A stretch of 63,974 nucleotides of DNA, filler included, from Rhabdomonas costata (GCA_019059605.1; 54 parts of 54 records of this genome joined end to end with filler, not necessarily neighbours in it), one strand, 5' to 3'. Counted from the first letter of the whole stretch, positions 4,813 to 33,052 are shown. Numbers and translations: made by a program. The notes: generated by a model not told the origin, from the letters alone.

Positions 4813-5819
4813 GCCCAGGCGATGCTCGTCCGCAATTGGGCCCAGACGTTCACCGGAGTGAAACGGCTGGTTGGGCTGCCGTTTCGAAGCCCCCAAGCCG
4901 ACCTGGAGAGGCCGTTCGTGAAGTTTTCCACCAAGGAGGCTCCAGAGGATGGTTTCTTTGCTTGGGCCTCGCTTGTTTCAGGCCGGAGTACTCCCAGCCT
5001 TGTGGACTTCGGCCTCCATGTTTTTCGGACTCAGCCGTAGCTTCGTGTTTTACATATTGGAGATATGTCCCTTTGGACGCCTCTTGTGGTAGTTGTATTC
5101 GAATGGGTTGTTTTTGAGGGAAAGCTTTTTATTCCTCTCCCCTTTATCGGATCCTTCCTTCCCGTGTCCTTCTTCCTGCGCCGTTGTATGCAGACTTTTT
5201 TATGGGTAGACACTGCGGTGATCCCCTTCTGCTCCCGATTGCTTCCCTCTGTAGATGCATTCGGGTAAGTGAAAAAAATTTCCCCCAAGAGAAAGAATTT
5301 CCCCCAACCACTGAGGAAGAAGGCTCCAACACATCACAGTAGATGCAGCATATAGGAGATCCAGGGGGCACCTGCATCGCCACCTAACCCCTGCAAAATC
5401 TTCTATTGGAGTCCCAGGGGACTCCTGTTTCGCCTCCTCGTGGGACTTGGGGGAAATTTTTTCTCTTCTTGGAAATTTTCTCTCAGCCATGCATTCTGCT
5501 TCTGTTTGCTTCCCACGTCACTCGCTTGCAAAGAACACTTTTGTTATGTTTCCAGACAGCCCTTGCTTAGCCGTGTGCACTCTACCGAAGCTTCATTTGT
5601 TTACTGTGAAGCTTTATTACCGCCGGTAGCCGTTACGGTCGGCAATAACCCATCCTTCCCTCGGGCACAAAGAAAAAGAACACACCAAAAATTCCATAAT
5701 AGGCACCTTTCAGCTCTGCCTTCCCGGAGAGGGCCCTTTCGATGGCTCTTCGAGCTTTGCGCCTGAGCAGGTGTACGCCATGCTGCTCTGTCACTTGCAC
5801 CAGCAGGCCCAGGCCGAAG
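4813..5819 (+). CDS. Hsp70-superfamily (Hsp110-like) nucleotide-binding domain, two exons
   Basis: Exons 4813-4951 and 5703-5819 join at phase 1: AQAMLVRNWAQTFTGVKRLVGLPFRSP...APED-G-TFQLCLPGEG...FAPEQVYAMLLCHLHQQAQAE; matches the KRLxG and F(S/T)PEQVxAMLL motifs. Confidence 0.75.
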
Positions 5820-6013
5820 GTTTTACACCCCCACANNNNNNNNNNNNNNNNNNNNNNNNNNNNNNNNNNNNNNNNNNNNTTAATTAATTAANNNNNNNNN
5901 NNNNNNNNNNNNNNNNNNNNNNNNNNNNNNNNNNNTGTGGTGTGTCAGTGGTGGCAAATCAAAAAAGGATGGATAACAACAGAAAGAAGCCGGGGGAGGG
6001 GGTTGCTAGGGAC

Positions 6014-6961
6014 CGAGATGAGGTGAGTTAGGTCGCCAGTCTCCCCACAGTTTGGGCGGACCATAAAGGTATTCATCCCATGCTCGCGGCGATATTGGTT
6101 CAGCGAGAACACGTTGGCGTAGATGTAGTAGTTGAAGTAGATGTCCGGGGGATTCACTGCCCATGCCCACTTCTTGGGTGGCCGGTTCTCAGGCAAAACC
6201 TGGCACCACATCCATGCACATGCACATGCACTCGCGCACACTACATGGACAAGGCAGGTGATTGGCCTTTTTTGCTGCCAGCGGCAGTCTGCTTCTCAGA
6301 ATGTGTGTGTGTGTGTGTGCCTGCGTGCCTGCGTGTAGGGCAAACCTTTCCATGTGTGGACTCGTCTGAGATGACATTGAACACCACTGTGTTGTTCAGA
6401 AACTCAGACAGCTCGGGGTGCTCCTGGGTCAAACAAATAAGCTCTGTTTCAGTTCGTCATCAGTATCACCATCGACTTTGTTTTTACGCCTTCTGGGAGG
6501 GAATATGTCGATGAGCGAGCAAGTTAACATTGTGCGACTGGGACCAGTGAGGCAGGCAGTGGACCTTTTCCTGCGGTCCACAATACGAGCAACCAGAGGC
6601 AGCGTGTGTGTTTGTGTGTGTGTGCGCGCGCGCGAGGGACGTCTTTTCATTCTCAGTTTCCATCTTTTCATTCACGCGCGCTTGGTTCGATAGATCCTCT
6701 TTTCTTCTCTCCATCCCAAGTAAAAAATCGCGCGAGCTTTCACAAGAAGGACTGAACAAAACCTAGCTGCTTCTGCCAACAAGTGGGGACGGTGGGGGGA
6801 TACATTACCCAGGGCTGCAGGGAGGCCTCCCACAGGGGTAGAAAGATGTTGTTCAGCTGCTCCTGGAGGTCCTTACACTTGTAAATCTGCCGGATGGCCT
6901 CAATCCTGGGGATCTGGATGGCCCAGCGGTTGGAGGGCGAGGACAGCCCGTGCGTTTTGAC
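6014..6961 (-). CDS. AMP deaminase homologue, three exons (probably catalytically degenerate)
   Basis: Phase-0 exons 6961-6809, 6423-6346, 6199-6014 give NRWAIQIPRI...LNNIFLPLWEASLQPW/EHPELSEFL...ISDES.../...NPPDIYFNYYIYANVFSLNQYRREHGMNTFMVRPNCGETGDLTHLIS, collinear with AMPD RWxIQxPR, NIFxPLFE, NPPYxYYxYYxYAN and RPHCGEAG. Confidence 0.9.
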
Positions 6962-9363
6962 CTGCGAGTGGGGAAGAGACGGGAACGTAAAGGCGCGGAC
7001 AACCCGGCCAATGAGAATTCAANNNNNNNNNNNNNNNNNNNNNNNNNNNNNNNNNNNNNNNNNNNNTTAATTAATTAANNNNNNNNNNNNNNNNNNNNNN
7101 NNNNNNNNNNNNNNNNNNNNNNTGTTGTGGGGCTGCTCACAAAGGAGGTACCCCTCATCCTGGTCTTCTAGGGGAGCGGTGGGGAGTTTTAAGGACTGTA
7201 TTTGCTCGGAAGTGATGTCTCTGTTGCGTTGCATTCTGAGGAGGAGGAGGAGGAGGAGGATTGTTGAAACTCAAAGGCTTCCCCCTTTTATGCCCCCTAA
7301 TAGGAAATGAAACTTCGCCGCCAGTGGCTTCTCAATGAGTACGTCGGATATCCCGAGTCCCCGGTCGACGCAGTCGTTGCAGCCTCAGTAGCCGCACCGG
7401 AAGCCCGTGACATTGGAGAAATTCCTTCGCAGGAGCTCCTCGGTAATAGCTCCTCTGAAAGCCCTCCGCTGCCCGAGCTCCACGCAGAAACCGTTCCCGT
7501 GCTACTGGGGACCACCGGGGACGTGCCCACCACCAAGGACATCTCCACAGCTTGCGCAGTGAAGGTGACTGTGCGTGCTGTCTCTGTCGTGGTGTGGTGG
7601 TGTGTGTGCAGGGGTGCGGCAGTCGATTGCCTTGAGCCATTGTTTCGGGGTGGTGGCTCGTACCCTTCTGGGCCGCCTTTTGGGGTGCACGAATGTTGTC
7701 CTGGTTACCTCTGTGTGAGCTCTGGCAGGAGGCAAGGAGTTCTTGTTTGGAAGCTAGGCTGACCAAAGGATATTTGCTTACAACGACGTTCCTAAACTGG
7801 GGTGCCTTCTTATTCTGCTGAGATTCTCTGGTTCCTTTTGTTTCGGAGCAACGCTTCTGCTGGGATAGCTGTAAATGTTGTAAAAAAAAATGCTGTAAAC
7901 CTTCCTCTTCCGCTCCGTCATCAAAACACGTGGAAAGCACAAATACCTTGGAGCTCACTTTGTCTCAGAAACACCTCAGAAACACGGGTTGGGTGACGTC
8001 AAATGGTGATGGAAGGCTCTGAGCCTGCTGCCGTCATTCTGGGGTCACCCATTGGCCCCCCCCTCCTTCGTGCGAAAAGCGGTCCGAAAAGTGGTTTCCT
8101 AGTTAAGGCATTCCATCAAGTCCTGCCAAAGCTCACACAGAGGTAACCAGGACAACATTCGTGCATCCCAAAAGGCGGCCCAGAAGGGTACGAGCCACCC
8201 CCCCAACCNNNNNNNNNNNNNNNNNNNNNNNNNNNNNNNNNNNNNNNNNNNNTTAATTAATTAANNNNNNNNNNNNNNNNNNNNNNNNNNNNNNNNNNNN
8301 NNNNNNNNGTGGTGGGGGGGGGGGTGAACGTCATCGGAAGGACATAGGGAGGTGTAAGACAGAATCCATCAATGAGGTTTTCTACTAGATCCCAACTACC
8401 ATGAGGCAGCGCGGAGTTGAAGAAACGGAGCTATTGAAAGGACATCGCTTATGAAACCTGCTGTCTTTTACCCACAGGCCGGTGCGGATTGCCACCGCGT
8501 GGGGGTGACCCCAGCCCCAATTCGGATCCGGTGCGTGTTGAACTCTTTCCGGGGCTGGGTGAGGGAAATGCCGAAGCGCAGACCCCGGTGCACCCTGGCG
8601 GTGGGAAGCAGCCAAAGCCGAGGTACGTGGAGGTCCCCCATCTTCTGTACGCAGCGGTTTGGGTATGAGCCGTGATTCCGCATTGAGCAACACACTGACA
8701 AAACCTCCTCTCGTGTACTGTATTTTGTGTATTGGCGCTTTCCCATTTCCTATTGTTTTCATTTTTTGTAGAATGCTAGCTCAGATGGTAGGTCGCAAGT
8801 GCAGAATGCAAAGACCTGCCAGAGAGGGACATCAGGCCCATCTCAGCCAGCGTACCGTGCTATTCACTTAAACGCCCACACTCTAAAAAATCGGCTGCTG
8901 GCAATTACGGGGGCGCTGCCGAAATGCCATATAACCCGAGTTTCTTTTCTACGGCAGCAGCAAACAGAAGCATTCCAGTCTTAGTGTTTCTTCTGGAAGG
9001 CACAGTGTACAGGTCTGCAGAGGTTCGAAAAATGCATTCCAGCCAATCACTCACAAGAAGGCCCAAAGTGGACCCTTCAGGATGCCATCGCGTGGTGTAG
9101 GGGGAAAAACGGTATAACCGTATAAAACGGAATATAACCAGAATCTGGGACGCTGCTATATTACTCACCTCAAAAGTGTTACCCTCCGGTCAGTCAGGTG
9201 AAAGTCAAGTTATGACACCCATTCCAGGTCCTTCGGCTCCGGCTCCGACCCCAGTCCCGGATTGCCCACATCGGCAGTAATCCCAATGAATAGGATGAAG
9301 ATCGAGCCCAAGGGGGTAGTCCGCTTGTGACTTCTGGAAGGACAAAAAGAGGAATTCCATGAC

Positions 9364-9364
<1 letters not shown>

Positions 9365-9397
<33 letters not shown>
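9365..9397 (+). repeat. (AC)n microsatellite
   Basis: Pure AC run at contig end. Similar runs at 32938-32966 and 43919-43956; (TC)n at 44813-44854; (GCCT)n at 27703-27743. Confidence 0.95.
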
Positions 9398-10749
9398 NNN
9401 NNNNNNNNNNNNNNNNNNNNNNNNNNNNNNNNNNNNNNNNNTTAATTAATTAANNNNNNNNNNNNNNNNNNNNNNNNNNNNNNNNNNNNNNNNNNNNGTG
9501 TGTTGTTTCCGGGGAGCAGTGAATATGTGACGCCGTGGTGTATAACAGTTTGATATTTCTTCGTTCACTGTGATGTTTTTCAGCCCATTGTGTCTCAGAG
9601 GTGCGCCAGCCTCTGCCTACTTGTGCTTTCACAATATCACTGGCTCTTGTGATTACAGATGCACCACATCAGTGTTGTTTTGGCTGTGCGTGGACCCTCC
9701 CCCCCTCCTGCTTTCTTGTTTTCTTTCTCTTCAAATTTTCTTGCGTTCGGGTCCGTACGGATGTGGAGATAAAAAGAGCGGAGGAATGTTCGAAAGGCAC
9801 CTCCTTTCGCTTTTTTCAGCCTCTCTTTGCCTCAGGCTTGTCGTGTGCGACAGCCTGAGGAAGGTGATTTTTCCATTTCCCTACCGGTGCTTTCGGCCGC
9901 GATTCCGAAGTGTTTAGTGCACTAGTGCTGCATGAATCTGTACTTCGGCGCGGAGTTACTGCCGCTCTTTTCTTTATAGCCTCAACACGCACCTCTCAGC
10001 TGTTGCCTGTTGTATGTTCTTGCCTGCTTTTTACATCGGCTTACATCGTGTTTCCAGCAGTCAGTTGAATGTGTTGGAGCAGTCATGGAGAACTCTGATT
10101 TGGCTACGGTAGAACTGAAAGTCACTCCTCTCCCCTTCATTCCATCTGTTTTTGTGGCATTTTTCGACGTGGGGGTTTCGTCCCCAGCCCCATGTACAAT
10201 CTCCCTCCCTCCCAACAACCTCGCGTGTGTATTGCTGGTGCGGTGCAATTTTCTGCGTGTCTGTGGTCAAGGACATGAATCAGCCACCACTTTTAGGAGC
10301 TGATGGTGTCTGACAACCGCCTCCCATGCCCTGTCGCCTCATTGGTGCCACCAAACCCTACCCAACCCAGGCTTCGAAGAGGGCTGCACATACCGCTACT
10401 GTCGCCGGCAACAGCGGCTTTGTGCTGCAACTGAGACCATGCTTTTTTCTTTCTGTGCTAGTTCAGAGGATCCGAGTGCGGTGAAGGAAGGCACATCGTG
10501 ATGGCAAATCCCTCCTTTACAAACAGGGACGAGGCGCATACAGTGACGCATCGTTGCAGAGTTTATGGGGTGTTTTTTTTTGGGNNNNNNNNNNNNNNNN
10601 NNNNNNNNNNNNNNNNNNNNNNNNNNNNTTAATTAATTAANNNNNNNNNNNNNNNNNNNNNNNNNNNNNNNNNNNNNNNNNNNNGGTGTGGCCCAAGGCA
10701 CCCGGATTCCCACCATCAAGCACTATGAGGGAGAGCCGCGGGGATCGAC

Positions 10750-11292
10750 CTCATAGTGCTTGATGGTGGGAATCCGGGTGCCTTGGGCCACAGCCTGAAT
10801 TAAGTTCTTCCCGCCCCGAGGGATCAATACATCGATGTACTTGTCCATTTTCAGCAGCTCCTGAACCGCCTGCATGAAAGGGATCAACAAAAGCAAGATT
10901 GCAAGATTTGAATGACGTTGGAGAGCGAAGTATGTGCAGGTTGCTTTTTTGCAAATTGCTTGCTGAGGTAGTTGTTTGTTTTGTCTCTGCAAAAAAGGCA
11001 GGCGTGCTAGAGTGTGTGCGTGTGCGCACTAGAAGGCTCTCAGTGAGAGAGCCGTAAGAAGCATAGCTTATTTGATCTAGTTTGATCTAGGAGCCTAACC
11101 ATCTGTTCGATGAGGTGAGGGGGCGACAGGCAAACATACCTCGTGGCCTGGAACGGCCAAAAGCTGCACGGCGTCCGAGGGCACGCCTGTCCTCTCACAT
11201 GCAGAGGCCATCGCCTTGGCCAGCACGGCGTTGGTGCGGACCCCCTCGGAGCCTCCTCGCAGCACCACGGCATTGCCGCTCTTCAGGCAAAC
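10750..11292 (-). CDS. proA: Gamma-glutamyl phosphate reductase (ProA, or the GPR domain of P5CS), two exons
   Basis: Exons 11292-11140 (VCLKSGNAVVLRGGSEGVRTNAVL...VQLLAVPGHE) and 10869-10750 (AVQELLKMDKYIDVLIPRGGKNLIQAVAQGTRIPTIKHYE); diagnostic KSGNAxxLRGG and IDxxIPRGG motifs; GT-AG intron. Confidence 0.92.
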
Positions 11293-13900
11293 CTACCAAT
11301 TTTTTGTTCGGCAATAACTGAAGGTTCCTTCAGTTAACTGACAGCAGTGCTCTTGCAAGCGAGCATGATGGGAAATGGGAAGCAGGCAGAATGCATCGCA
11401 ACAGATCACACGGAACCTAAAATCGAACTCAGGCGAAAGAGATATGGTATTTTGACGGCGTGATAGCATTGGTTCACACCGTTTTGTAACTGTACTAAGA
11501 GCTTCATCGTCGCGGCGAGATAAACCTCCAGAAGTAAGGACCGATTGAGAGAGGAACAAGCAGCACAACATCGAAGCGCGCACGCAGAAAACACTCGCAG
11601 CTTTAGAAAGGCACGTTGTCGGGGTTCTGGGAACAGGGGTGGGGAAAGTAACGAGTTATTCCGTGGGCATGCACAACCGGCGTCACACAGATGGTGCATA
11701 ACGCGCTCCTCAGTAATAACAGAGGTAAACGTTATCATCTCAAACTATCCCAACGCATGAAAAACAAACACNNNNNNNNNNNNNNNNNNNNNNNNNNNNN
11801 NNNNNNNNNNNNNNNTTAATTAATTAANNNNNNNNNNNNNNNNNNNNNNNNNNNNNNNNNNNNNNNNNNNNTGTGTTGGTTGGTTGCCGGGTGGCGGCTG
11901 TTGAGAAGGCGAGAAAAAACTTCGGCAAAGTCAGGTCGTCTAGCAAGCTGGACGCAAAGCACATGTGCGTCAGCACCCAAGAATGGACTTAATTGAAGGT
12001 CACTGACATGACCATGCGATTTCCATTTTGCCAAACACTGAATTCAAAAATTGAAAGCTTCTTGAAAACACACATAAAATAGGCCGAAAGCATGAACGAG
12101 GCGAGCAGCCGGCCTGCAGGGCTGCAACCCCAAGAACCTGATTCGGATGAGTGTGAAAGGGCCCTGAATCGGTTTCTAAAAGTCTTGGTCACCCAAGCAG
12201 AAATGGGAATGAAAGCCCAGCAAAGTGAAATATTCACCGACTCTGTACCTGCCCTTGCCTTCCACCCTCAAGTCGCCAGTCTTCCCCAGCCTCCGCGGGC
12301 ATTGGCTGCTGGCTGGAGTAATTGATCTGTCGAGCGTTCAGCGAGGAACCGCGGGCCTTCGGGCCGGAAGAAGCTGAGGCACCCATTGATAAGAGATTCC
12401 ACTGAAACCAACTTCCTCAGGAAGTCTAAAGACAATATATAGAAAGCAAGGGGGAAGGAAAAAAGGCGCAAAAAAAAAAATTGAGAAAACTGTGAAAATA
12501 AGGACGTAGGAAAATCAAGGCTCTGTGCATTCCGTTCTCCAAATCCAAATCCAAATCATTTTTGCACGGATGTGTATGCGAGCGTTGAATCACAGCGGGA
12601 AAGAGCGGTTCACCAAAAGAGCGTTTGACGAAGCCAGGGGTGTAAAACGGGAAAGAAAGGGGGAAGAAAATAAAAGTGTCCTCGTCAAGACGCGCGCAGC
12701 CTCGCACGGGGAGTCCTATGGCACTGTGCTATTCTTTGCTTTGTGTCTGTTTGTTGGCGTTTGTGCATGAAAAGACGGAAAAGAAACCCACCCACACACA
12801 CACACATTGCGCTTTGGCGTGGTGTGCTGTGACGTGCCGTTGCGCTGCTTGTTCACACCTGTTTTGTTGTTGCTGGTGCGTTGGCGTTGGCGTTCCCCCC
12901 ATGTGCCTCAGTGCTCATCCACACACACACATTCCATTGCGAGCTTTGGAGTGGACGGNNNNNNNNNNNNNNNNNNNNNNNNNNNNNNNNNNNNNNNNNN
13001 NNTTAATTAATTAANNNNNNNNNNNNNNNNNNNNNNNNNNNNNNNNNNNNNNNNNNNNGGTGGGGGGTAAATCCTTATAACAAGGGCGCTATCGCGGCTG
13101 ACCAAGATATTCAAGTTGTTCCCCGCTTTTCCCATTGGCATCCTGCCCGGACAAGGCTTCGTTTACCGTCTTGTTGTCTACCGTTGTCAGCCGCGATAGC
13201 GCCCTTGTTATAAGGATTTTCCCCCCACGTAAATGCATATTTTCTCGAACCACCGGGCCATGCCGAATTACCCTTTCCATTTAGTCCACGCCGGCCGGTG
13301 AGTTGGAGTTGTTATTTAGTATGCTGTCGCCGCGCGCCGAGGTTCCCGCCGAAGCGCAAGGTCAGATTTGTGCAAAAATGCACACCGCAACAGAGGCGCA
13401 CTTAGATATTCGGGCTGGACCAGTAAACGTTTCTAATAAACCCTTGGGGTCTGCAAGGAAGAGCTCGAAAGTAGCAGATTTAGATTGAGCCACCAGTGGC
13501 GGCAAGACGGTGTTTTGACATCCGCACTGTTCCATAGCAATTACATCAAAATGAGGCACCCTTGGGGGATACCAACGACCAAAACACCTTTGCCTACAGA
13601 GCAGTTCACCTGACCCTCGGTTGAATGTCAACAGAGAACGAAGGATGCCAAAGAAACTGTAACGTAGTCCTTGAAGTCAGCAGAGCAGAGCAAAGCGAAG
13701 CAAAGCAAAGAAAAGCAGCGAAAACTGTGCATCGCCAATGGTGGCGAAAGCACTTCCACCGTAGCTGCCCAGGTCAAGACCGGGGCCGCCAGGAAGAGTC
13801 CACACACGCCCCAAACCTCCAGTTTAGTGTGCTGTGAATGCGTCTGTGTTGGTGTCTGTATGTAAAGGGCTCTCCACCCCATGGGAATGAAAATGAAGCC

Positions 13901-14029
13901 TCAGAACCGGCGACGCTGCATAGGCCCGCGCTTCACCAGCGGAGGGCGCTTTGGCTTTTTCGCGGTCGTTCCGCCGCGGCGCTGCTTCTCCAGCCTGGTC
14001 TTCGCCTTCGTGTCAGCGAAAGAGAAGGC
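13901..14029 (-). CDS. Putative last exon, basic C-terminus of unknown protein
   Basis: ggcatag|GCC...; AFSFADTKAKTRLEKQRRGGTTAKKPKRPPLVKRGPMQRRRF*. Confidence 0.4.
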   Translation of the reverse strand, partial: AFSFADTKAKTRLEKQRRGGTTAKKPKRPPLVKRGPMQRRRF

Positions 14030-17000: not shown

Positions 17001-18188
17001 TTGTCCCCTGGCAATCCCAGTAATTATTCTTAGGGGACGCTCGCCAGCGATTCCTATTTATACAAGTTGAAATAATGAGAAAGAGAGAGAACTGTTCTTA
17101 AGAAACGACTACGGTGCGTTCACTGGAGTTTTAGTCCGGGATGTCTGGCAGAGCCGCATAGCGGACCATTCAAGCATGGCTTCGAAAAGCCTCTGAGCTT
17201 GTTTGGTACCTCGTCATTTCTCAACCGTGAAACCGTTCACCCTGCCCCCCGACACACACAAAAAAACTCTTTTCCGCAAATTTCGTTTTGGATGGCGTTT
17301 GGGTTTGCGAGCATAGTGCTTGGCTGCATGAACTGTTTCCCATCTTCTCCTGCACAGGGCGACTGCACGGGATACCGCCCAATGCTTGAAAAGGACTTTG
17401 GAAGTCAGCTGACCGCAGCACAGCGCAAGGACAAGGAGCTCTGGGGTGGCAAGGGCGGGTCTGCCGCGCTGCGTGCGCGGGTTCTCGCTCCCTTGGTAGC
17501 CCCCCCGCTCCAATTATCGTTTCCATTCCAATCACATCCCTTCACATCCATTCGCAAGCATGGCAATGGCACCGTTCTCCGCTAGCGTTTGCTTTCCCTA
17601 CTTCCAAGCAATTCCGAACTCAATAGGGAAAGCCTGCACAGTGAAAACAGCGTCCTCCCTTGGGGAGCCTGCTGTCCGGGAAGAGCACTCCCCCCCCACA
17701 NNNNNNNNNNNNNNNNNNNNNNNNNNNNNNNNNNNNNNNNNNNNTTAATTAATTAANNNNNNNNNNNNNNNNNNNNNNNNNNNNNNNNNNNNNNNNNNNN
17801 GGGTGGTGGGGGTGTGTTTGGTTTGTGGTGGTGTGTTGTGCATACTACTACACGAGATGTGCATGTTTGTTGTTTTCACGAAGTGGCGTGCGCTTTTCAG
17901 TAAATACGGTGAATCAACCGGTGAAATTATCTGTAAGTAGAACTTCTGTTATCGAGATTTGGCGGGTTCAATGGGTTGTGGAGATTTGTTTGTGCATTTG
18001 ATTGCTTTCCACCCTCCATTTTGAACCGCTTATTCATTCATTAACCATCTGGGTTTTACTGATCCAGTCGCAAACTTTAGTTTCAGCTGTTTTTAGATGC
18101 TGGACTGTCTGTCGGTGTTTACTGGTGGAGGAGGTTTTTTTGCTTTCAGTGGCATTTATTGGTGCTTTACGGGGGGTTTGGTCTCGTT

Positions 18189-22700: not shown

Positions 22701-23434
22701 ATTCGTATCTGAAGGCCCTGGACCCCTCTCGATTCCAGGAGGTCATCACCGCGGCAGAGGAGGCAGGCTACTACAACGATCTTGTGCGGTGTGCACATTT
22801 AACCCCAACATGGCATCTCCAGTTGACGACCACTGGCTGTGGCTGGCGCATAATGGCCCGAACTGACGGACTATTGTGGCTCTTTTGTTGCTTGGTTGGG
22901 GTTTTTCACAATTTCCAGCTTTCAAAATCGTGTGGCTGTGAGTATGGGATCGTGCACATTTTTTTTAATGGTATGCTCCCGTCCACCTGGACCTACATTC
23001 CACCTCCAGCTACCTCATTATGGCCCGCACGGAGTCCAAGGTTAAGGAGAGTGTAATCGACACGGAGCTGATGTACGCCTACGCCAAGACGAACCGCCTG
23101 GCTGACCTGGAGGAGTTCCTCGGCACCCCCAACGTGGCCCAGGTGTGTCCTGTGAGTGTGCATCTGGGCGGTGGGATGAGATAGGAAGGAGAGACGGGTG
23201 CCGTATCAGACAATTCCTTGTTTTGAGGGGGAGATTCATTATCTCCTCCATTCTGTCTGTCCTCACCATGCAGGTGCAGTACATTGCCGACCGATGCTTC
23301 AACGAGACGCTGTACGAGGCCGCGAAGATTCTGTACACCAGCATCTCCAACTTCGCTCGGCTCGCGGTCACCCTGGTGCGGCTGAAGAACTACTACGCCG
23401 CTGTGGACGCTGCGGGCAAGGCCAACAGCATCCG
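22701..23434 (+). CDS. CHC: Clathrin heavy chain (proximal leg repeats), three exons
   Basis: Exons 22701-22788, 23010-23142, 23274-23434: [10 protein letters not shown]...YLIMAR...[21 protein letters not shown]...[37 protein letters not shown]...[10 protein letters not shown], collinear with known CHC. Confidence 0.97.
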
Positions 23435-23902
23435 GTGCGGGAGCTCTTTTTGCTCCATCCTCACGCTTTCCCGTGTTCTCCGCCCTCGCACACCCACCAC
23501 CACTTTCTGCGAACCCGTCCGTGGCACGCTCATTACAGTTTTTCCTACATTTGTTGTCAATCTGTGTCAGAACGACCTCCCCCGACCTCCCCCTGCTTAG
23601 ACGCGAGCCCCAGGTGTCCAAAAGTCTCTCTGCANNNNNNNNNNNNNNNNNNNNNNNNNNNNNNNNNNNNNNNNNNNNTTAATTAATTAANNNNNNNNNN
23701 NNNNNNNNNNNNNNNNNNNNNNNNNNNNNNNNNNTTTTTTTGTTTTCAGCTTTCCTTGCTCTTTGGTGTCTCTGTGCCCTTTGGCGCGGCCCCTGTGCAG
23801 ATTTGAATAGCAACTCCTCAGTGGTGAACCCCCCTTCTCAAGGTGCCCCCTCAATTTGTTTCCCCTTCTATTCCCAAATTTCTTGGTGGGGGAGCGGGGG
23901 GT

Positions 23903-24714
23903 ATGGACTGGGACGACGAGTGCCGCACCCCGGAGTACGACCGCCTGCTGCGGCAGTTCGCGGCCAACGTGAGAGACCTTCTGCCTCTGGATGACGTCAA
24001 CAAGATCAGCGACCGGGACATGCTGCGGCGGTTTCTAGTGGCCCGGAAGAACAATCTCCAGGTATGCGTGGGGTTCTGCTGTATGGTCTCTCCTCACTTG
24101 GTGTCTCGACATGGTTTCCCAGTCCTGAGGGACAATTAGCTGAGTTAGTTTTGGCGGTGAAAATAATCTTCTCTTCTTAGCGCAGTTTTGTGGTCCAGCA
24201 TCCTTGGCATAGGAAGGATGGCGACTTGTCGGCCATCAGCCGCGAGGACAGTTGATTTGAATGGTCAAGCAGTGAGATTAGTGGGATTTGCGCCGCCTTC
24301 ATTGGTGGGATATTTGCATACTTTGGTGTGGTTAGGGTTAGGGTAACTGTTTATTGTAATCAGGGGTGCAGTCACATTAAACCGGAATGAAGTCCAGGTC
24401 AACAAGCTCGGATGGTGCTGATAAATGGGAAGCCATACCTGGAGCCCAAACTCCACTACATAGGAAGCGGAGGCCATGCTGCGCAAGTACATGGCCTGGA
24501 GGAAGCAGCACAACGTCAACAACGTGATGTATGAAACCTTCTCTACGGACTTCGTGAAGTACCACCCCGGGGGCATTCACGGGGTAGACCGCAAGGGCTT
24601 CCCGGTGTACTACCAGCGCCCCGAGGCCAAGGGGCTGTCGTACATGCTGGAACACCACAACCAAGATCAGCTGATGCGGTGGCATGTGCACGTAATGGAG
24701 AGAAGCAGAGAAAA
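23903..24714 (+). CDS. Sec14/CRAL-TRIO lipid-binding protein, first two exons
   Basis: Exons 23903-24061 (…DMLRRFLVARKNNLQ) and 24464-24714 (EAEAMLRKYMAWRK…GIHGVDRKGFPVY…); LxRFLxAR, WR and GxDKxGxPV motifs. Confidence 0.9.
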
Positions 24715-25318
24715 GTTTGTTTCTTTCGCTCTCCCTTCAGCTGTTGCTGAGGCCGTAAATGTTCCGGAGTCCCGCTCACTCGAAACAGAAATCATTGTCA
24801 CCAATACCACACCAACCCCCCNNNNNNNNNNNNNNNNNNNNNNNNNNNNNNNNNNNNNNNNNNNNTTAATTAATTAANNNNNNNNNNNNNNNNNNNNNNN
24901 NNNNNNNNNNNNNNNNNNNNNGTGTTGGGTGTGGTTGGTTGGTTTGGTGAGAAACAACTGCGATGACGGTGTGATAGGTTTCAAGCACTCTTATCCCGAG
25001 TTCAAAGGTGCCCCGAACAAGCACAACCCGGAAAAAACAAACCTCATTTCTATTCCAAGCGGCCCCAGCTTCCGATTCAAAAAGGGCAGTGTCAGCAACA
25101 GTGAACATGGCTGAGGCAATTTTGACAGCACAGCACGGCACAGCAGCGCAGCACTTTGTATAGTTTCACAAGCGGGTAAATAACACGCTTGTATCTTCAG
25201 CGATGCATTCCCACCAACCGCGGAACAGTTGAAAAAAAAAGGTATTGGAGTAAAAATACAGAGAAAGGTTGCTGGGTGCGGATGTTGTTCCCTCAAGGGT
25301 GAACAACACCCCCCGCAC

Positions 25319-25735
25319 TTCCCACTTCCGGTGCCGGAACAGGGGGTCACCCAGGCGAGTTTGTCAGCGAAAAGACTCGAGTTCGCCATTCCTAACATAG
25401 GGACCAGCCGAAGGGAATAGAAGAGAGCACTGATTCCGCGAATCTGCAGTTCAGCGTCCATCGCTGGTTTTCAGGAAACCGCGTCACTCCCGTCACTCCG
25501 CCAAATATATATATGCTATAGTGGTATGATCCAGAGAACTGCGCTACATCCATACCGGCGGCAATTGGACCCTGTGCAACCATTAGAAAAATATTGATGA
25601 CTTGCTCAATCCGTTCGTAATGAAGGAAGCGCTGCTTTGCGCCGACCACGTGAGCTATGTCAGTGCTAAGGCGCTGCATAACCTCGCTCGACCCCAATAA
25701 GGTGCTGGAATCGAAAGGAGCGGGCACAGGCCAAT
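25319..25735 (-). CDS. Two spliced exons, unknown protein
   Basis: Exons 25735-25556 and 25463 to about 25319 join at phase 1 across a 92-nt GTATGG...CAG intron, open frame. Confidence 0.45.
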
Positions 25736-26146
25736 CTTACACAATCCTGTTCCACGGTAGCGCAGCGATCGGACCCTTTGAACCCCCTTTACCCAAACAG
25801 TAAAACACGCAAACTCAGACCGGTGGATGTGACGGTCACATTGCAGCATGGAAAAGCAACAGATGCATATGAGGGAAGGGACCCGAGAAACAAACAGTTG
25901 ATGCCCTACCCAAACCACCCATCCCCTTCACAGGTGCACCCACCGAGTGGTCCAGTGTGGTGAAATCCTGACACTCCCGGATCAGCGTGAGGTAATACCC
26001 CAAAAACCNNNNNNNNNNNNNNNNNNNNNNNNNNNNNNNNNNNNNNNNNNNNTTAATTAATTAANNNNNNNNNNNNNNNNNNNNNNNNNNNNNNNNNNNN
26101 NNNNNNNNGTGGTGGGTGTGTTTGGTTTTTGTGGTCTCTGTGCGAC

Positions 26147-26175
26147 TAGGGTTAGGGTTAGGTTTAGGGTTGGGG
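26147..26175 (+). repeat. Interstitial telomere-type (TTAGGG)n repeat, about 5 imperfect units
   Basis: tagggttagggttaggtttagggttgggg. Confidence 0.7.
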
Positions 26176-26178
26176 ACC

Positions 26179-26864
26179 ATGTCGCGCTTTGCCTCGTTGT
26201 GGGACTGGACAATTGGTGTTCGCTTGTCCGTTCTTGTGGAATCCGTGGTGAGTGAAGGGTGTGCTCGCCTTCTGGATTTGGTTGAGCCTTCCACCGCAGT
26301 TGGAAATCGCGACTTAACGGTGATTGAAATGTTATGTCCTGGATACCCGCGGGCAGAAGTGGTTGCTAAGATGACAAGTTTACTCAGCCAGGTGAGAATG
26401 CTCCCGGCTTTGTTCAAGCCTCTCTTATCCGAAATTTCGCTGTCGTGCCTTCTGTTGCTGTGGTTTGCTTGTGTTTTCTCTCCCAGAAATTTGAGGTGCT
26501 TGTCGTGTCAGAGTTCACTCCGAGCCTCCTTCGTCAAAAGCTCTGCCACCAGGAGGGTCAGGCCACGAAGCTGTTTTTGGGTATTCACCAGCGCTTCATT
26601 GCAAAATCTGTGTCATGTGTGGACTTTTCAGGCACGTTTCTGTGTGTTGCAGCCGAAGATGAACCGGCGCACCTTGTGTTTGAAGAGGTTGTCAAGCTGT
26701 GTGGATTCAGCGGGCAACTTTCTCCCCATCGCCCTTCAGCCCCGCCATACTTTTTGGTGGTCACCACGGGACCCTGCAGGGTTTCCCCCAAGCTTGGGCA
26801 GGGCCTATCCAATCTGAAAAAGGTCCTCATTACGTTGGATGGCGTGGATCAACTCTACAAACAG
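26179..26864 (+). CDS. Spliced gene, unknown protein (first two exons)
   Basis: Exons 26179-26391 (ATG; donor GTGAGA) and 26487-26864 (acceptor ttttctctcccag), both phase 0, 197 open codons. Confidence 0.55.
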
Positions 26865-27501
26865 GTCCTGTCCTCACTTGTTTGCTCTTGTTTAGCGAAT
26901 GACCAAGGCCGACCTTTATGGGTCGCCTTTTGACCTTTTTGGTTTGGGTTCTTATTCTTGCATATAGGCCAGGAGAACATAACATCCTAAACATAGTCAC
27001 ACCAGGTCACTCAGTTTTCAGGTGTCGGTTCCTTCCTGCTGATGACTTACGAAGCGCAGTTTAGCCTGCTTGAAACATTAATTACCTCCGCTCAGAGTCT
27101 GGTGGTGTGCTGGCAGTGTGCTGAACTTCTTGGGGACAACTTCCTGAGAAAAGACCACTTCTAAGGGAAGAAGGGAAAGAGGCCTGGAGTCCCCNNNNNN
27201 NNNNNNNNNNNNNNNNNNNNNNNNNNNNNNNNNNNNNNTTAATTAATTAANNNNNNNNNNNNNNNNNNNNNNNNNNNNNNNNNNNNNNNNNNNNTGGGAA
27301 AAGTATCTGCACGACAAACACGACACACAAGTGGAACGCTCGGCCCCACGGCACGCTTTGAAGGTGTACCTCTCGCCAGCCCCCAACCAACACTGCGTTA
27401 GTGCGCCCATCAGTCGATTGCAGTCTCCAGCAACCAGGCAGGCAACAGCCAGTGCGCGATGCGCTATGTGCAGCCGCGGTTCACGCTGTCCTTGGGTGCA
27501 G

Positions 27502-28329
27502 GCATAAGTTTGAGATCCGCAGCGGGGTCATCACGAAGGTGAAGCCCTCAACTAAGAAGACCCTGCGGCACTACGTCGAGGCCCCAGGGTGTGTTTTGGA
27601 TGTGCTAAGATGTGCGTGCAATGCTCGGGCAACAAAGAGGAGGCAGGGTTGTGGTTGTTCTCCGCTGTAACCGCTTGCCAGGAAGAAAATCCATTTATGT
27701 TTGCCTGCTTGCCTGCCTGTTTGCCTGCCTGCCTGCCTGCCTGCACGCATGCTGACCTTCACAGAAAAGAGGGGATTATGCCCGCTTGTGCGCCGAAATG
27801 CCCGCACATATGTTCACCACCCTTTGTTCCGCCAATTATAAGTATTTGGCGATGATGGGTGATGATATTCCATTTTCCTTTTTTACTGACGCAGTTTTTC
27901 ATATCTCTCCAGTCATCGCCCTAATAGTGTTTTGACTTTTGTTTGGGGTTGGGGGGACCGGTTCGTTGCAGAGTGGTGGGAGTTGGCTGTTGCACTGGGT
28001 GACACTGGCAATTGATCGGGCAACTAATTGTCCTCCTTTTTCTTTGCGACTTGTTCTTTCTCTTTCTTTTGAATTACTGCCAACCACACGCACTGGAAAA
28101 AGCAGAAAAGGCGGAATGTTAGCCACCGAACCAAAAAAGAAAAGAAACATGTTCGTGCACTGGTGGTAGGTACACCACCACGGCTTCGTTGGCGCGGGCC
28201 CGCGAGCTATATGGCCCGAACAACTTTGAGCTCCCGCGGCCCTCCTTCTGGCAGGGCTACAAGCAGCAGCTCACCGCCCCGCTGTGCGTGTTCCAGCTCT
28301 TCTGCATCGCGCTGTGGCTGTTGGACAAA
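27502..28329 (+). CDS. P5A-type ATPase (ATP13A1/Spf1-like), two exons
   Basis: Exons 27502-27588 and 28170-28329: ...LRHYVEAP-G-YTTTASLARARELYGPNNFELPRPSFWQGYKQQLTAPLCVFQLFCIALWLLDK; matches P5A (F/Y)GxNxxxxPxPxF...APFFVFQxFCxxLWxLD. Confidence 0.88.
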
Positions 28330-28517
28330 GTGTGCGGTTACCCCCCTCCCCCAGAACCCCACTTATACAGCCGCCCAATGGNNNNNNNNNNNNNNNNNNN
28401 NNNNNNNNNNNNNNNNNNNNNNNNNTTAATTAATTAANNNNNNNNNNNNNNNNNNNNNNNNNNNNNNNNNNNNNNNNNNNNGTGGGGGGGGTCGAGTTCA
28501 TCCCATCCCGCCACTGA

Positions 28518-29568
28518 GTGGAGGTCAGCCCAATTCCAGAGGTGGGTTCCGATTTGATGTCAGGAAATCCGCCACCTCCAAAGCCGAGCGCAGCCACCGC
28601 ACCACAGATGGAGCAGACTTTTCTTAGTCAAATGGTATCCTTTTTCAAGAGCATGGAGCAGCAGCAGCTGGACAATCATAATATTTCACAGGAGTTGCTG
28701 CGGAGAGTGGTGGATGGATCCTCAGCGGAAGGTTTACAGAGTGGATGAGGAGCGCCAGCTTCCACAAATCCAGAGGCGCTGGGAGCATTGCGGAAATTGC
28801 AGGAGAAAGATCTAGAGTTCCCGAAGTACGATGGGAACCCAGCTAATTTCCTACCGTGGCTTGTGTCAGTGGAAGAGCTGAAGAACGTTAGCAGGCTTCC
28901 AGATCAAGTTGCAATCATTTATGCCACAGGCGCCTTTGGTGCACATGTCTATACAGACTGGAAAGAGTTTGTAGAAACGTTGAAGAGGCGGCTGTGTGCA
29001 CAGACGTGGGACTACAACGTAGTGTGTAGGTTGGAGCAATTGAAGATGTCGGAGGGGAACGTCCAATTCTACCATCAGAAGTTCGTGACCTGGATGAATC
29101 TGTTGAAGGGGAAGAAGTTTGACAACGAAACTCTTTTGAAGTATCTGTTTGTCAGAGGTTTGGAAGGGGACATCCAGGCCAAAGTGATGGCGAAGAATCC
29201 ACGGATCATTACAGAGGCAATGGATAAGGCCTGGGAGTATTTCAGAAAGCCAAGACCACATCCACAGGTGATTGTGGCGGTTCCAGATGGCACTGTTCAG
29301 AGAGGAATCGCGGCATTGGGGGCTGTAATGGATTTAGATGCCATACGTTATGGGTACACTCCATTCTCGTGGAGTACGGCCTTTCTAACCTCTACAGAGA
29401 GATATGTCAGCGGTGCCCATTCCACAGTTTCCAGAGGTATGGTTAACGTAAGTCCGGTGCAGAGAAGTGCAAATTTGTTCAAAATGGCGACACCGCCAAC
29501 GTTAGCAGCCACACTTCCGGCGAGTTCAGTAATGTTTTTCGCCACTCAACAGCACAATTTAATGCGAA
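28518..29568 (+). mobile_element. gag: Ty3/gypsy-type LTR retrotransposon gag, degenerate
   Basis: Intronless PKYDGNPANFLPWL...WKEFVETLKRR...LEQLKM.EGNVQFYHQKF...LFVRGL...I...V....P..ITEAMDKA...MDLDAI. Upstream part 28518-28748 is separated by a stop. Confidence 0.8.
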
Positions 29569-29668
29569 NNNNNNNNNNNNNNNNNNNNNNNNNNNNNNNN
29601 NNNNNNNNNNNNTTAATTAATTAANNNNNNNNNNNNNNNNNNNNNNNNNNNNNNNNNNNNNNNNNNNN

Positions 29669-30755
29669 TGATGGGCAGCACAGAGAAGGCATGACCTCGG
29701 ACGCAGGGCAGGCATTTGATTTCGATGCACCAGGGACTTCGCTCACCTCTCACGTCGAGGGCGAGACAGGTGCTGCAGACAAGGCTGCTCGGAAAGGATC
29801 CTCGACATCCCTGTCTTCTTCCAGTGCAGGCTCTCGGGACGTCCCAGATGTCATTTCTCGGGCTGCCGCCGCAGCACAGTTTGCTGAGCAAGGATCAAGC
29901 TTCAGCAATGTCGAGGCAGGGGACAGCGAGGAGGCCAGGAATCACGCCGGGGGACTTTTCGAGCATCCCGCGGAGCAAATAGTTCCAGCAGGTACGACGG
30001 AAGAGCCTGACTTTCCAGGGAGGAGGCCGAGCGATGCAGTGGTCCGAACTCCTTCCGAGGAAGCCCCAGTATTTTCGCATGCGCTGGAGCAAGCCGATGC
30101 TAGCGCGCAGGAAGAGAGGCAAGTGTGCCCAGAGACCTCAGCGATGCCTGGGGGTTCAACTTCTGCGGAATCTGATGTTTGGCGAGGGGCTGCACCAGGA
30201 AGCGCCGATAACGATGACTTCTGGGCCACACCCAACGCGGCTTCATCCTCATCAGTATCGGCTGGAGTTCAAGAGTCGCCTGCCGCGGAAGACAGCGGGC
30301 CCAAGGAAAACCCGTTTGCAGATGACATGTTTGGAGAGGGACCAGCGCAGGCTTCTCCCACGGTGGCTCGTGAGCAAGAGGGGGCGGCCGAAGACCTTGA
30401 CAAAGATGACTTCTGGGCCTCACCAAATGCAGTGTCCTCCTCGGGGTCAAGAGTTGGGGGAGTGCGTGCAGGACGAGCGGATGGTCCCGTGGAAAACCCA
30501 TTTGCAGACCAGGATAACTTGTTCAACGACGGAGCTGTGGAGTCCAGTGCGGCGCAGGCTGGCCTTTTCGAAGGAGACCAGCACAGGGCTGGCGGCGTGT
30601 CTGAGCCCGAAGCGTTTGGCTTTGAGGATGATGGACAGCACAGAGAAGGCATGACCTCGGACGCAGGGCAGGCATTTGATTTCGATGCACCAGGGACTTC
30701 GCTCACCTCTCACGTCGAGGGAGAGACAGGTGCTGCAGACAAGGCTGCTCGGAAA
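29669..30755 (+). CDS. Acidic disordered protein built of 960-bp (320-aa) tandem repeats with NPF and DDFW motifs
   Basis: Whole contig is one open frame; 29691 onward is repeated at 30651 onward; internal duplicated DDDFWAxPNAxSSS and ENPFAD. Confidence 0.75.
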
Positions 30756-32045
30756 NNNNNNNNNNNNNNNNNNNNNNNNNNNNNNNNNNNNNNNNNNNNT
30801 TAATTAATTAANNNNNNNNNNNNNNNNNNNNNNNNNNNNNNNNNNNNNNNNNNNNTGTGTGGTTGCATCAGCTGCGTCAGCAGAGGCAAGGGCATGCACA
30901 AACAAACCGGGTGTCAGGGCATCAGGGTCAAGCTTGGGGAGAGAATCTTCAAATCTTCAAAGTGACCGATTGGACGCAAAAATCTGTGTAAGATACCATG
31001 AGACTCGGGTTGCTCCCTTTGGCAATAAACCTATATGAAGACAGGCTAAAAGAGCGAGGGATGAGGGAAATGAAACAACTCTAATGGAAGCCAACGTCTC
31101 CACCTTGCTACAGGTCCCTCGGGCGATACTGGAAAGAAGTAATTTGAACAGCATTTTTCCTCTTCGGTGAACGCCCCGTTGCTGATTGCTGGCGGCGCTC
31201 TTAGCAGTTAGTCCAATTTCTCTGCCTTCATCCCACGTTGAAACTTCCGTCCGTCTGTTTCAGGTTACGGAGTTTGATGAATAAGAAGAGACTGAGACAA
31301 TCGCCAAGCTAGACAGGCAGGTGCCAGCCTTCACTATGTGCTTCGCAGCGTCCAACGTTGGACCCTTTTTGGCCTCTACATTTTTGAGGGTACAGGTCTT
31401 CCCGTGTGTGTATGTGTGTGCGGCCGACCGCCATTGCTAACAGTTCCAGAAACTCTTTTTTTTTGGGCACCAACGGTAGACGCATAGTGCCCTCAAAGAG
31501 TCCTGACTGCACATCTGCACAGGCCATAGTGTTGCTTTCCAGAAAGTTTGCAGAGAGTCTAATGCTGACAAAGGTGCACTGGCCCAGGTTCTTGAAACCA
31601 GTGGTCAACCGCTTCCTGCGGGCCTCCTTGCAGAGCCAACAAGCCAACAATGAGTAACCAGTCAGTCAACTGGAGGAATAATGCGCGTGCTATAATGTCA
31701 TGCACCACGTTAGCTGCTGCGTGCGCCCTACAAAGACCTGCAGGATGCCAGTTGCCCGGAAAAGTTCAGTGCTGAGTTTTTATTATATCGATTCTGGCCT
31801 CTTACAATGGCTCCACAAACTCCAACCTATGGGATGCACGAACCCATCGAAACCCATTGCTGAACTGGGAATTCGAGACCCCACTACCACCACCAGGACT
31901 GCGCGGTAGTGGCCATGATAATATACCACCCACAACCCNNNNNNNNNNNNNNNNNNNNNNNNNNNNNNNNNNNNNNNNNNNNTTAATTAATTAANNNNNN
32001 NNNNNNNNNNNNNNNNNNNNNNNNNNNNNNNNNNNNNNTTTTTTT

Positions 32046-33052
32046 CAGTTGCACCATGCCGAGCCGTTCCACATACACGTGCCGTGACCTGAGCGCGGCC
32101 GGGTGAGTGAGGTATGACTTTGTCAAGTTGACTCAAAAAGATGCGACAAGGAAACCAGCAGATACAAGGGGTCCCACTTTGCTTACATAAATACATTAAG
32201 AGGTCATTGAAACCGTTTACCTAGCACTGCCAAACGTTAAAGCCCTCCTCCTCCTCCACGCATAACTTAATTATCATAACGGAAGACGTAGAGGTAAGGA
32301 AGAGACTTCGTTCAATTCATTTACTTCAACCCCAGCATTTACAGAGACGACAGATGCCACCAATATTGTCATTCCGACTCCGAAACAAAGCACAAAAATA
32401 TCCCAGACTCAAAAATCGCACGCAAACGCATACACTCGCACACCGCAAGGGTTCAGCGCATCTCCGGGGCTGAGGAAAAAAAGAGAAAAAGCACAGAAAA
32501 CTCGGAACACGCGTACGTTGAGCAGGAAGCCAATGGAGTGAGGTTTACCCATTTGCCCCGAAAAAGAAGCATCAGGGAGCAACGAGATCAGAAATCAGAG
32601 AGCAACGTGGAGTCAATTCCTGGTGGGTTATGATGGGCTGAACAAGAATTCTCATCTGAGGAACTCTGGCACAGTTTAACTGACCCCCTAACACTTCAGT
32701 TACCCAACCTCTTAAGTTACCATCGGTAACCGTTACAAGGTATTACTGGTAACTGTTACCACTCCCACTCCGGAACGTCAGCTGGGCCGGAACGATGAAC
32801 GAGGAGCACGTTCACCATTTTTCAGATGGCAGTTTGCACGATGGAGGGGGAGGGAGTGCCAGTTCCAAGCAATGCTTCACAAACATTGCCCCACCCTCCA
32901 CCCGTGACCACCCATTTTGTGGGCACATGCACAGAGGCACACACACACACACACACACACACACACCATTGCACAGAGCAGTCCGCGCCACGGTAAGCTG
33001 CGGTGCAAGAACAGGTCCCTGTTCCATTCACCCCGTCGCTGCATTGACCATG
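32046..33052 (-). CDS. EGF-like repeat surface protein, three exons including a 26-nt micro-exon
   Basis: Exons 33052-32967, 32469-32444, 32088-32046 splice to HGQCSDGVNGTGTCSCTAAYRGADCSVQCPGDALNPCGHGTCMWNGSAWCN; EGF cysteine spacing. Confidence 0.85.

Follow-up and report, generated by a model that had tools for sequence, protein, structure and literature searches.

Euglenids splice their introns in two ways: the spliceosome reads the GT-AG borders together with a pyrimidine tract, and a second machinery reads a helix formed by the intron termini. The origin of these two splicing systems is a question on which spliceosomal introns with a terminal helix bear. A stretch of 63,974 nucleotides (nt) from Rhabdomonas costata (GCA_019059605.1), hereafter the window, raises this question, as it had been predicted from the sequence that six of its introns, lying between positions 4952 and 32443, are defined by the base pairing of their two ends in place of a polypyrimidine tract. 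Is there such a class of introns? Our analysis points in another direction. We lean, with somewhat better than even confidence, towards ordinary U2-type GT-AG spliceosomal euglenid introns, a few of which have ends that are unusually good partners of each other, and towards a pairing that is uncoupled from the loss of the tract.

End pairing and tract strength across the intron set

The window consists of 54 unlinked contigs of 1081–1089 nt each which are separated by N runs enclosing a TTAATTAATTAA linker, so that the predicted span does bracket separate contigs, as had been stated. Within the window we defined 21 complete GT-AG introns of 72–751 nt, including all six flagged ones, which agrees with the earlier estimate of about 20 reconstructable introns. 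That 21 of 21 introns have GT-AG borders is partly by construction, as GT-AG pairs were what the search looked for. The junctions were set by reading of the contigs, coding blocks, frame checks, Pfam profile coordinates and two transcript-derived proteins. For R. costata, protein prediction started from the transcriptome, not the genome (PMC8219788; the publications cited here were available in part, and statements on them refer to these parts), and the protein set is therefore independent evidence for splice junctions. Eleven introns form the best-supported set, with support from homology or transcripts for all but the intron 378–995, which was placed on frame and splice signals alone. In this set the introns of Hsp110 and Sec14 were established by tblastn of the transcript-derived proteins P0001 and P0002, those of AMP deaminase (AMPD) and clathrin by Pfam profile positions that are continuous across the junctions, and those of P5A, proA, COMT and cyclase by the Pfam identity of an exon and a frame-consistent junction that fits the family pattern. 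The other ten introns (C15, C16, C23_a, C23_b, C23_c, C31, C36_a, C36_b, C40, and the contig-28 intron) have continuity of the open reading frame (ORF) and splice signals only. Where an intron could not be bounded at both ends it was left out; this applies to contigs 34, 38, and 48, to a 45-nt candidate in contig 39, to the final intron of contig 23 and to every intron with one end only inside its contig. Three of the five introns that had been named as strong-tract controls are part of the set (378–995, proA, and COMT). The "ATPTB6" control could not be located in the window, and of the control "EGF intron 1" just the 3′ end lies inside the contig, so that a stem cannot be judged.

Complementary 5′ and 3′ segments are present in each of the six flagged introns, as originally described. 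The expectation that cognate ends pair more stably than other ends was not borne out. When the proposed test was run (RNAduplex of the first 40 nt against the last 60 nt, hereafter 40 × 60, with 20,000 permutations), the mean was −18.1 kcal/mol for cognate and −17.6 kcal/mol for permuted ends (standard deviation 0.86, p = 0.27, n = 21), and two of the 21 introns were more stable than their own dinucleotide shuffles at p < 0.05, namely the contig-28 intron (p = 0.017) and the unflagged C16 (p = 0.027). For the other five flagged introns the p values against the shuffles were 0.17–0.78. In fact dinucleotide-shuffled ends alone reach −10 to −36 kcal/mol and stems of the flagged size are therefore the norm. 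The longest helix measured 7.52 base pairs (bp) in cognate and 7.60 bp in non-cognate pairs when G-U pairs were allowed (p = 0.64), and 5.14 and 5.20 bp when only Watson–Crick pairs were counted (p = 0.63). Compared with the non-cognate pairs, AMPD intron 2, Sec14, and the unflagged C15 are outliers, and Hsp110 and P5A fall at the median. The best partner of the 5′ end was found within the last 60 nt in 4–5 of 16 introns, with 2.3–2.5 expected. A minority of introns whose termini are each other's best partners is supported.

The strength of the tract was expressed as a score which is a measure of our own and not calibrated for Rhabdomonas costata. Five of the flagged introns score 1–4 and the 15 unflagged introns 4–24 (Mann–Whitney p = 0.017); the sixth flagged intron, clathrin intron 2, scores 15, so that the absence of a tract in five of the six, with clathrin as the exception, was correctly seen. 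As this grouping was made after the stems had been seen, differences between the flagged introns and the rest are circular. A score of at most 5 was obtained for 7 of 21 introns (Hsp110, AMPD intron 1, AMPD intron 2, Sec14, C23_a, P5A, and the contig-28 intron), two of which are unflagged (AMPD intron 1 with a score of 5 and C23_a with a score of 4). Weak-tract GT-AG introns are real: two of them, Hsp110 and Sec14, are confirmed by transcript-derived proteins. It is a small but useful fact that about a quarter to a third of the acceptors in the window, including these two, have no obvious tract.

It had also been claimed that introns with strong tracts show no such stem. This holds for proA and COMT, whose ends pair weakly in the 40 × 60 test (−7.9 and −9.6 kcal/mol), but not for 378–995, which has a duplex of −22.3 kcal/mol and the longest helix of the set with G-U pairs allowed (11 bp). 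The duplexes of C15 (−28.1 kcal/mol) and C16 (−25.7 kcal/mol) are stronger than those of four of the six flagged introns. Over all 21 introns, the predicted anticorrelation of pairing with tract strength was not significant on any measure. For pairing energy against tract score, pyrimidine fraction, and U fraction, rho was 0.17, 0.27, and 0.38 (p = 0.45, 0.24, and 0.09), and for the cognate-specific energy 0.19, 0.29, and 0.41 (p = 0.42, 0.21, and 0.07). The shuffle z-scores gave a rho of about 0 and the positional rank described below −0.09 to 0.25 (p > 0.27). Under the proposed test, a replacement of the tract by structure thus fails on both counts, the comparison with non-cognate or shuffled pairs and the correlation with tract strength. 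A coupling of the end compositions (5′ G+T with 3′ A+C) as an explanation was not significant in the 21 introns either (rho 0.28–0.38, p = 0.09–0.22).

The make-up of the intron ends probably accounts for most of the stems. The 5′ ends are G/U-rich, and about a quarter to a third of the 3′ ends A/C- or purine-rich and not pyrimidine-rich; ends of such make-up readily find stems of 6–14 bp, many of them with G-U pairs, so that most of the flagged stems would be what any 5′ and any 3′ end of this genome give. Unusually good mutual termini are found securely in Sec14, in AMPD intron 2 by virtue of its CA/TG composition, and perhaps in C16 and the unverified contig-28 intron. Such mutual-partner introns would match the "conventional/intermediate" introns described for euglenids, and a stem of this kind may help to join the splice sites.

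Predicted stems of individual introns

The Hsp110 intron (4952–5702, plus strand, 751 nt) has GT-AG borders, an A-rich acceptor and a tract score of 4. A 46-residue translation of the Hsp110 exon finds one protein in a large protein collection, P0001 (eukprot:RCo044750), with 100% identity, running identically into the next exon, and the junction between ...PEDG and TFQLCL... is confirmed by tblastn with this transcript-derived protein. Two junctions of the nonconventional type that were considered by reading (4940–5723 and 4976–5723) are ruled out, as P0001 reads ...PEDGTFQLCL... at this point. The stem joins positions +2 to +15 (4953–4966) to positions −43 to −28 (5660–5675) with 14 pairs and is part of the minimum free energy (MFE) fold of the whole intron. 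In the 40 × 60 test the Hsp110 duplex is average, being at the 53rd percentile of the non-cognate pairs and having a shuffle p of 0.33, and in both Hsp110 and P5A the 5′ end finds better partners in the interior of the intron than close to its 3′ end. The Hsp110 intron also contains a foldback element of ~220 nt (5266–5486) that starts with GTAAGT, ends with CTCAG and has internal tandem duplications. Its 33-nt inverted repeats (5275–5307 and 5447–5479) are 88% complementary, and it is flanked on either side by alike sequences (ATGCATTC) and by a 21-nt direct repeat (5227–5247 and 5494–5514). The very low folding energy of the intron (z = −3.6) is due to this element. It looks like either a nested intron or a small inverted-repeat transposon whose ends resemble splice sites, and the window yielded no second copy of it.

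AMPD intron 2 (6200–6345, minus strand, 146 nt) has a tract score of 1. Its exons fit the positions 331–379 and 414–469 of the Pfam family AMP_deaminase, and 33 residues fill the 34 intervening profile positions. A CA-rich 5′ arm (~6306–6342) lies opposite a TG-rich 3′ arm (~6202–6242). The duplex of −32.7 kcal/mol is at the 0.5th percentile of the non-cognate pairs; its complementarity is nevertheless compositional, because the p value against dinucleotide shuffles is 0.78. In the full fold, for which the expected pairs between the first 40 and the last 60 nt were taken from the partition function of the whole intron, there are 8.2 expected end pairs, a number that 38% of the shuffles reach, and 8 MFE pairs.

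The junction of intron 2 of the clathrin heavy chain (23143–23273, plus strand, 131 nt) is marked by continuous positions of the Pfam family Clathrin, as five residues fill the five intervening profile positions. Its stem (+28 to +40, 23170–23182, with −19 to −7, 23255–23267; 12 MFE pairs) would, if the fold is right, sequester the strong pyrimidine tract. It is not above shuffles (p = 0.66 in the 40 × 60 test; 13.1 expected pairs, reached by 40% of whole-intron shuffles).

For the Sec14/CRAL-TRIO intron (24062–24463, plus strand, 402 nt, tract score 4) the junction was confirmed by tblastn of the transcript-derived P0002 (eukprot:RCo027391), which is 92% identical to the exon 1 query. Together with P0001 this protein marks the organism as a euglenid, most likely R. 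costata or a very close relative. The stem pairs +2 to +14 (24063–24075) with −18 to −2 (24446–24462), giving 15 MFE pairs and juxtaposing both splice sites. With the first 15 and the last 20 nt (15 × 20) the duplex energy is −12.9 kcal/mol, and the positional rank is 0.01–0.03 at all three window sizes. The 40 × 60 duplex is at the 2.9th percentile of the non-cognate pairs, the shuffle p values are 0.06–0.17 (40 × 60 and 15 × 20), and the full fold has 15.9 expected end pairs, which 20% of the shuffles reach.

The intron of the P5A-type ATPase (27589–28169, plus strand, 581 nt) has an A-rich acceptor, a tract score of 3 and a frame-consistent junction, and its exon 2 matches the Pfam family Cation_ATPase_N. 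A possible duplex between 27591–27616 and 28110–28134 is average (51st percentile of the non-cognate pairs, shuffle p = 0.77 in the 40 × 60 test). The ends are unpaired in the full-length fold, with 0.2 expected pairs, a value reached by 83% of the shuffles.

Five of the six flagged introns carry a correct gene label in the original prediction; the sixth label, "EGF", which had been given to the gene of the contig-28 intron ("EGF intron 2"; 32103–32449, plus strand, 347 nt, C/A-rich acceptor, junctions unverified), is unsupported. No Pfam family was found at E ≤ 1 for the downstream ORF of contig 28, and neither a representative search nor a word-index search found a transcript-derived protein of the same species. 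The sole relative of this ORF among 1.84 billion representatives is P0003, a protein with cysteine-containing leucine-rich repeats of ~41 residues; the match is weak, being 46% identical with an E-value that is inflated by seven matches of one query stretch, and tblastn of P0003 against the window gave nothing at E < 1e-3. The exons 32053–32102 and 32451–32630 together resemble one leucine-rich-repeat unit (CRDLSAAG ... GVRFTHLPRKRS, compared with the repeated C.SLTGGVRFGHLPRLRKL of P0003). If the register of the repeat holds, the true 3′ end in contig 28 would lie ~80 nt further downstream. The predicted stem comprises +1 to +32 (32103–32134) and −44 to −7 (32406–32443) with 24 MFE pairs.

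Among the unflagged introns, C16 (17933–18149, plus strand, 217 nt) has a GTAAGT donor and a U7 tract. Its stem (+1 to +22, 17933–17954, with −27 to −7, 18123–18143; 20 MFE pairs) pairs with the tract itself. The 15 × 20 duplex of −11.3 kcal/mol has a z of −3.4 against non-cognate pairs, a shuffle p < 0.01 and a positional rank of at most 0.02; the full fold has 15.3 expected end pairs, reached by 5% of the shuffles. C15 is at the 2.9th percentile of the non-cognate pairs and has 14.5 expected pairs, reached by 17% of the shuffles, and 16 MFE pairs.

The control intron 378–995 (plus strand, 618 nt) has the strongest tract of the set with a score of 24. The proA intron (10870–11139, minus strand, 270 nt) has a score of 11; its upstream exon has a weak match to the Pfam family Aldedh (E = 0.0024–0.012, below the gathering score), and the proA label comes from reading. 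The O-methyltransferase (COMT) intron (33525–33942, minus strand, 418 nt) scores 12, and its exons match the Pfam families Methyltransf_3 and Methyltransf_24. The introns of Hsp110 (4952–4960) and COMT (33934–33942, minus strand) share their first nine bases, GTTTCTTTG. Whereas a GTRAG donor is common in other eukaryotes, it is found in none of the 11 best-supported introns, and position +4 is a T in 9 of them.

Some observations concern the contigs themselves. In 8 of 54 contigs the end carries an inverted repeat or palindrome (10687–10792, 13060–13228, 33227–33292, 36554–36680, 36784–36859, 51029–51103, and 7647–7730 with 8121–8204). Rather than biology, they most likely reflect chimeric amplified DNA or foldbacks of the assembly, and long inverted repeats of this assembly are therefore to be taken as real only with caution. 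CA/TG microsatellites are common at the contig ends. In contig 40 a (TG)n stretch within intron C40 (46473–46498) and a (CA)n stretch ~850 nt further on (47329–47354) form a 26-nt inverted repeat that spans an exon. On the minus strand of contig 34 two coding-looking blocks are found (39183–39380 and 40063–40230), the downstream one preceded by a pyrimidine tract and a CAG acceptor; an in-frame GT donor is absent near the end of the upstream block. Between the blocks there may be a nonconventional intron, or else the exon may have a long G-rich extension. A fit by reading of an intron with the CDG/CHG code broke the frame. On both strands of contig 44 (51028–52113) several frames are open, and the contig encodes a serine/threonine-rich low-complexity repeat, and contig 26 (29670–30755) is a single long repetitive acidic ORF whose first 40 residues are repeated at a spacing of ~1 kb. 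Due to these repeats the self-trained codon model was distorted and unable to place junctions; it was used for the listing of coding blocks only. Pfam searches of 300 of the 848 stop-to-stop ORFs gave matches of 5 ORFs to 3 families, and an Rfam search of the window gave no match.

Explanations for the remaining complementarity

As nonconventional introns pair within ~10 nt of their ends, the permutation was repeated on a 6 × 7 grid of window sizes. The outcome, together with several further results, weighs against our reading. In all cells of the grid the pairing of cognate ends exceeds that of non-cognate ends (minimum z = −3.75 at 15 × 20 nt), with a family-wise p of 0.003 for all 21 introns, of 0.012 without the contig-28 intron and of 0.067 when C16 is dropped as well. 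A hairpin test gave p = 0.017 (k = 15) and p = 0.009 (k = 20), and with mononucleotide shuffles of the 15 × 20 windows 5 of 21 introns (C16, C31, C36_b, contig-28, and P5A) have p ≤ 0.05. In a positional control the 3′-terminal window was ranked among all windows of the same intron as partner of the 5′ end. A rank of at most 0.05 was obtained for six of 21 introns at 15 × 20 nt (C16, Sec14, C23_a, C23_b, the contig-28 intron, and C36_b; binomial p = 0.0004), for three at 20 × 25 (p = 0.085) and for five at 25 × 30 (p = 0.003); C16, Sec14, and the contig-28 intron have it at all three sizes. In the full folds, the 13.9 expected end–end pairs of Hsp110 are reached by none of 12 shuffles, and the contig-28 intron has the strongest end pairing of the set, with 19.9 expected pairs that none of 40 shuffles reaches. 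In addition, the relation of U fraction to cognate-specific energy (rho = 0.41, p = 0.07) has the predicted sign, albeit without being significant at n = 21. A modest excess of terminal complementarity that depends on the window size is thus left unexplained.

This excess could be accounted for if in perhaps 15–30% of the spliceosomal introns the first ~15 nt formed a short helix with the last ~20 nt and so juxtaposed the splice sites, irrespective of a tract. The grid (p = 0.003 for the whole set, p = 0.0002 in the ten introns with ORF support only) and the positional ranks, with six introns at 15 × 20 nt and three at all sizes, argue for it, and the excess is seen in weak-tract (n = 7, p = 0.085) as well as in strong-tract introns (n = 14, p = 0.014). 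Such introns, having both splice sites in one stem as nonconventional introns do but not the CAG/CTG code, would be a living intermediate stage on the way from conventional to nonconventional introns whatever the strength of their tract, a scenario to which we assign a low probability. The helix itself we also regard as unlikely, as the excess is absent from the 11 best-supported introns (p = 0.60), comes almost wholly from the ten ORF-only introns, being carried by a few, mostly unflagged ones with unverified junctions and deviating donors, depends on the window size and fades to p = 0.067 once two introns are dropped; moreover, such stems would overlie the 5′ splice site, the sequence to be recognized by U1. 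The donors of the ORF-only introns are GTGAG or GTAAG in 5 of 10 cases (6 of 10 with GTGAAG) against 0 of 11 in the best-supported introns, so that some of the former may be mis-called or may belong to a separate intron population. No introns other than Sec14, C16, and the contig-28 intron are conspicuous in all of the controls. When the end-pairing subset was chosen blind to the original prediction, just Sec14 and the contig-28 intron were members from among the flagged introns, and C16, C23_b, and C36_b have usable tracts. A subset with real end-to-end complementarity may thus exist, but it would be neither the flagged six nor linked to the tract and would consist mostly of unverified introns.

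The proposal from which this study started, in which an end-to-end stem replaces the tract and the 3′ splice site is defined independently of U2AF2 as in teleosts, could claim the missing tract of five of the six flagged introns, the weak trend with U fraction and AMPD intron 2, which combines CA/TG repeats, the duplex of −32.7 kcal/mol and a tract score of 1 in the same arrangement as the teleost introns (PMC4691745). We give it little credence, since the anticorrelation is not significant on any measure, the grouping is circular, the duplexes of the weak-tract Hsp110 and P5A introns are average with the ends of P5A unpaired in the full fold, and the strong-tract introns 378–995, C15, C16, and C23_b pair equally well or better. 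The complementary ends might instead be relics of the terminal inverted repeats of transposon-derived introns. By our own count 11 of 12 pairs of the Sec14 stem, and 8 of 8 in the core of the Hsp110 stem, are Watson–Crick pairs, the Hsp110 intron holds the foldback with its 33-nt inverted repeats, GTAAGT start and CAG end, and euglenid nonconventional introns have been suggested to descend from transposons (PMC11170887). This is very improbable in our view: by reading, the stems have no sequence in common, as had been noted, and no target-site duplications were seen beside the flagged introns; no second copy of any arm or of the foldback was found in the window; and C16 and others use many G-U pairs, which are mismatches in DNA. 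Finally, the flagged introns might be hybrid or nonconventional introns that are removed without the spliceosome and carry GT-AG ends by coincidence. In E. agilis 0.8% of the introns are hybrids that combine conventional with nonconventional motifs (PMC12501133), and both splice sites of Sec14 lie inside one helix as in nonconventional introns. On the other side, the complementary C-D-G/C-H-G code is found in 0 of 21 introns, and just 7 putative nonconventional introns were accepted in R. costata upon manual inspection of 26 of 105 read-supported candidates (PMC8219788), so that we attach next to no probability to this explanation.

Were spliceosomal introns that rely on a terminal helix common in an early-branching heterotrophic euglenid, the missing intermediate would be at hand and the origin of the two systems would become a testable question. 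In the present window such introns are at best a few cases of an already described curiosity.

Comparison with known intron systems

Nonconventional euglenid introns resemble the introns analyzed here in that their junctions are brought together by terminal pairing. Their code, given as N3-CDG...CH′G-N5-6 followed by a purine (Nomura et al. 2025; PMC12501133) and in E. gracilis as CCAGG at +3 to +7 and CCTG at −9 to −6 (Gao et al. 2024; PMC11170887), is however missing here. None of the 21 introns has C-D-G at +4 to +6 with a complementary C-H′-G 5–6 nt before the 3′ end; the 5′ motif alone is found in one (C31) and the 3′ motif alone in two (C15 and C40). Nor do the non-canonical borders of nonconventional introns occur, all 21 being GT-AG. 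Thus, the suggested bridge between conventional and nonconventional introns finds no support in these introns. In the assay of Gao et al. 11,527 GT-AG introns of E. gracilis showed no pairing peak, with 35.35% at 0 kcal/mol compared with ~3% of the nonconventional introns (PMC11170887). The tract of E. gracilis is C-rich and its donor consensus is GTGTG (PMC11170887), which is echoed by the Rhabdomonas donors described above. A statement that in euglenids the tract gives way to a stem was not found in the available parts of the papers cited here by searches that were not aimed at its absence; the word "polypyrimidine" has 0 occurrences in PMC12501133 and refers to the C-rich tract only in PMC11170887. 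When the assay was applied to our introns (terminal 10 nt, U7, terminal 10 nt), 8 of 21 (38%) were at 0 kcal/mol, which is conventional-like.

Conventional/intermediate introns, of which an earlier account was reportedly given by Milanowski et al. in 2014, are the closest match. They have GT-AG borders and a structure joining the ends but no common elements (Milanowski et al. 2016; PMC4770533), and this combination of canonical borders and end-joining structure is exactly the class that had been proposed for the window. They differ in being known from tubB and gapC of Euglena and not from Rhabdomonas, and in the available text no link to the tract is claimed (PMC4770533). Milanowski et al. regard such introns as conventional and the structure as probably no sign of kinship with nonconventional introns, and leave open that introns with a true dual mechanism exist (PMC4770533). 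In R. costata conventional borders were found in 29 of 29 complete introns of six genes; the available part of this study reports no intermediate introns, and its Table S2 covers 11,418 mapped introns with their borders and without sequences (PMC8219788).

Outside the euglenids, the (AC)m-(GT)n introns of teleosts have AC and GT repeats at opposite boundaries and splice without U2AF2 (Lin et al. 2016; PMC4691745). AMPD intron 2 resembles these introns in its arrangement, with CA repeats at the 5′ end, TG-rich repeats at the 3′ end, a stable predicted bridge and no tract. The differences are that the repeats are imperfect, that AMPD intron 2 is a single case among 21 introns and that the other flagged stems are not dimer repeats. 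A further parallel is offered by the structured spliceosomal introns of yeast, diplomonads, and parabasalids, in which helices shorten the distance from the 5′ splice site to the branch point. Here too intramolecular helices are thought to aid the pairing of splice sites in spliceosomal introns. In those introns, however, the helices are internal and leave the splice sites free, whereas in Sec14, C16, and the contig-28 intron the 5′ splice site itself is part of the predicted stem.

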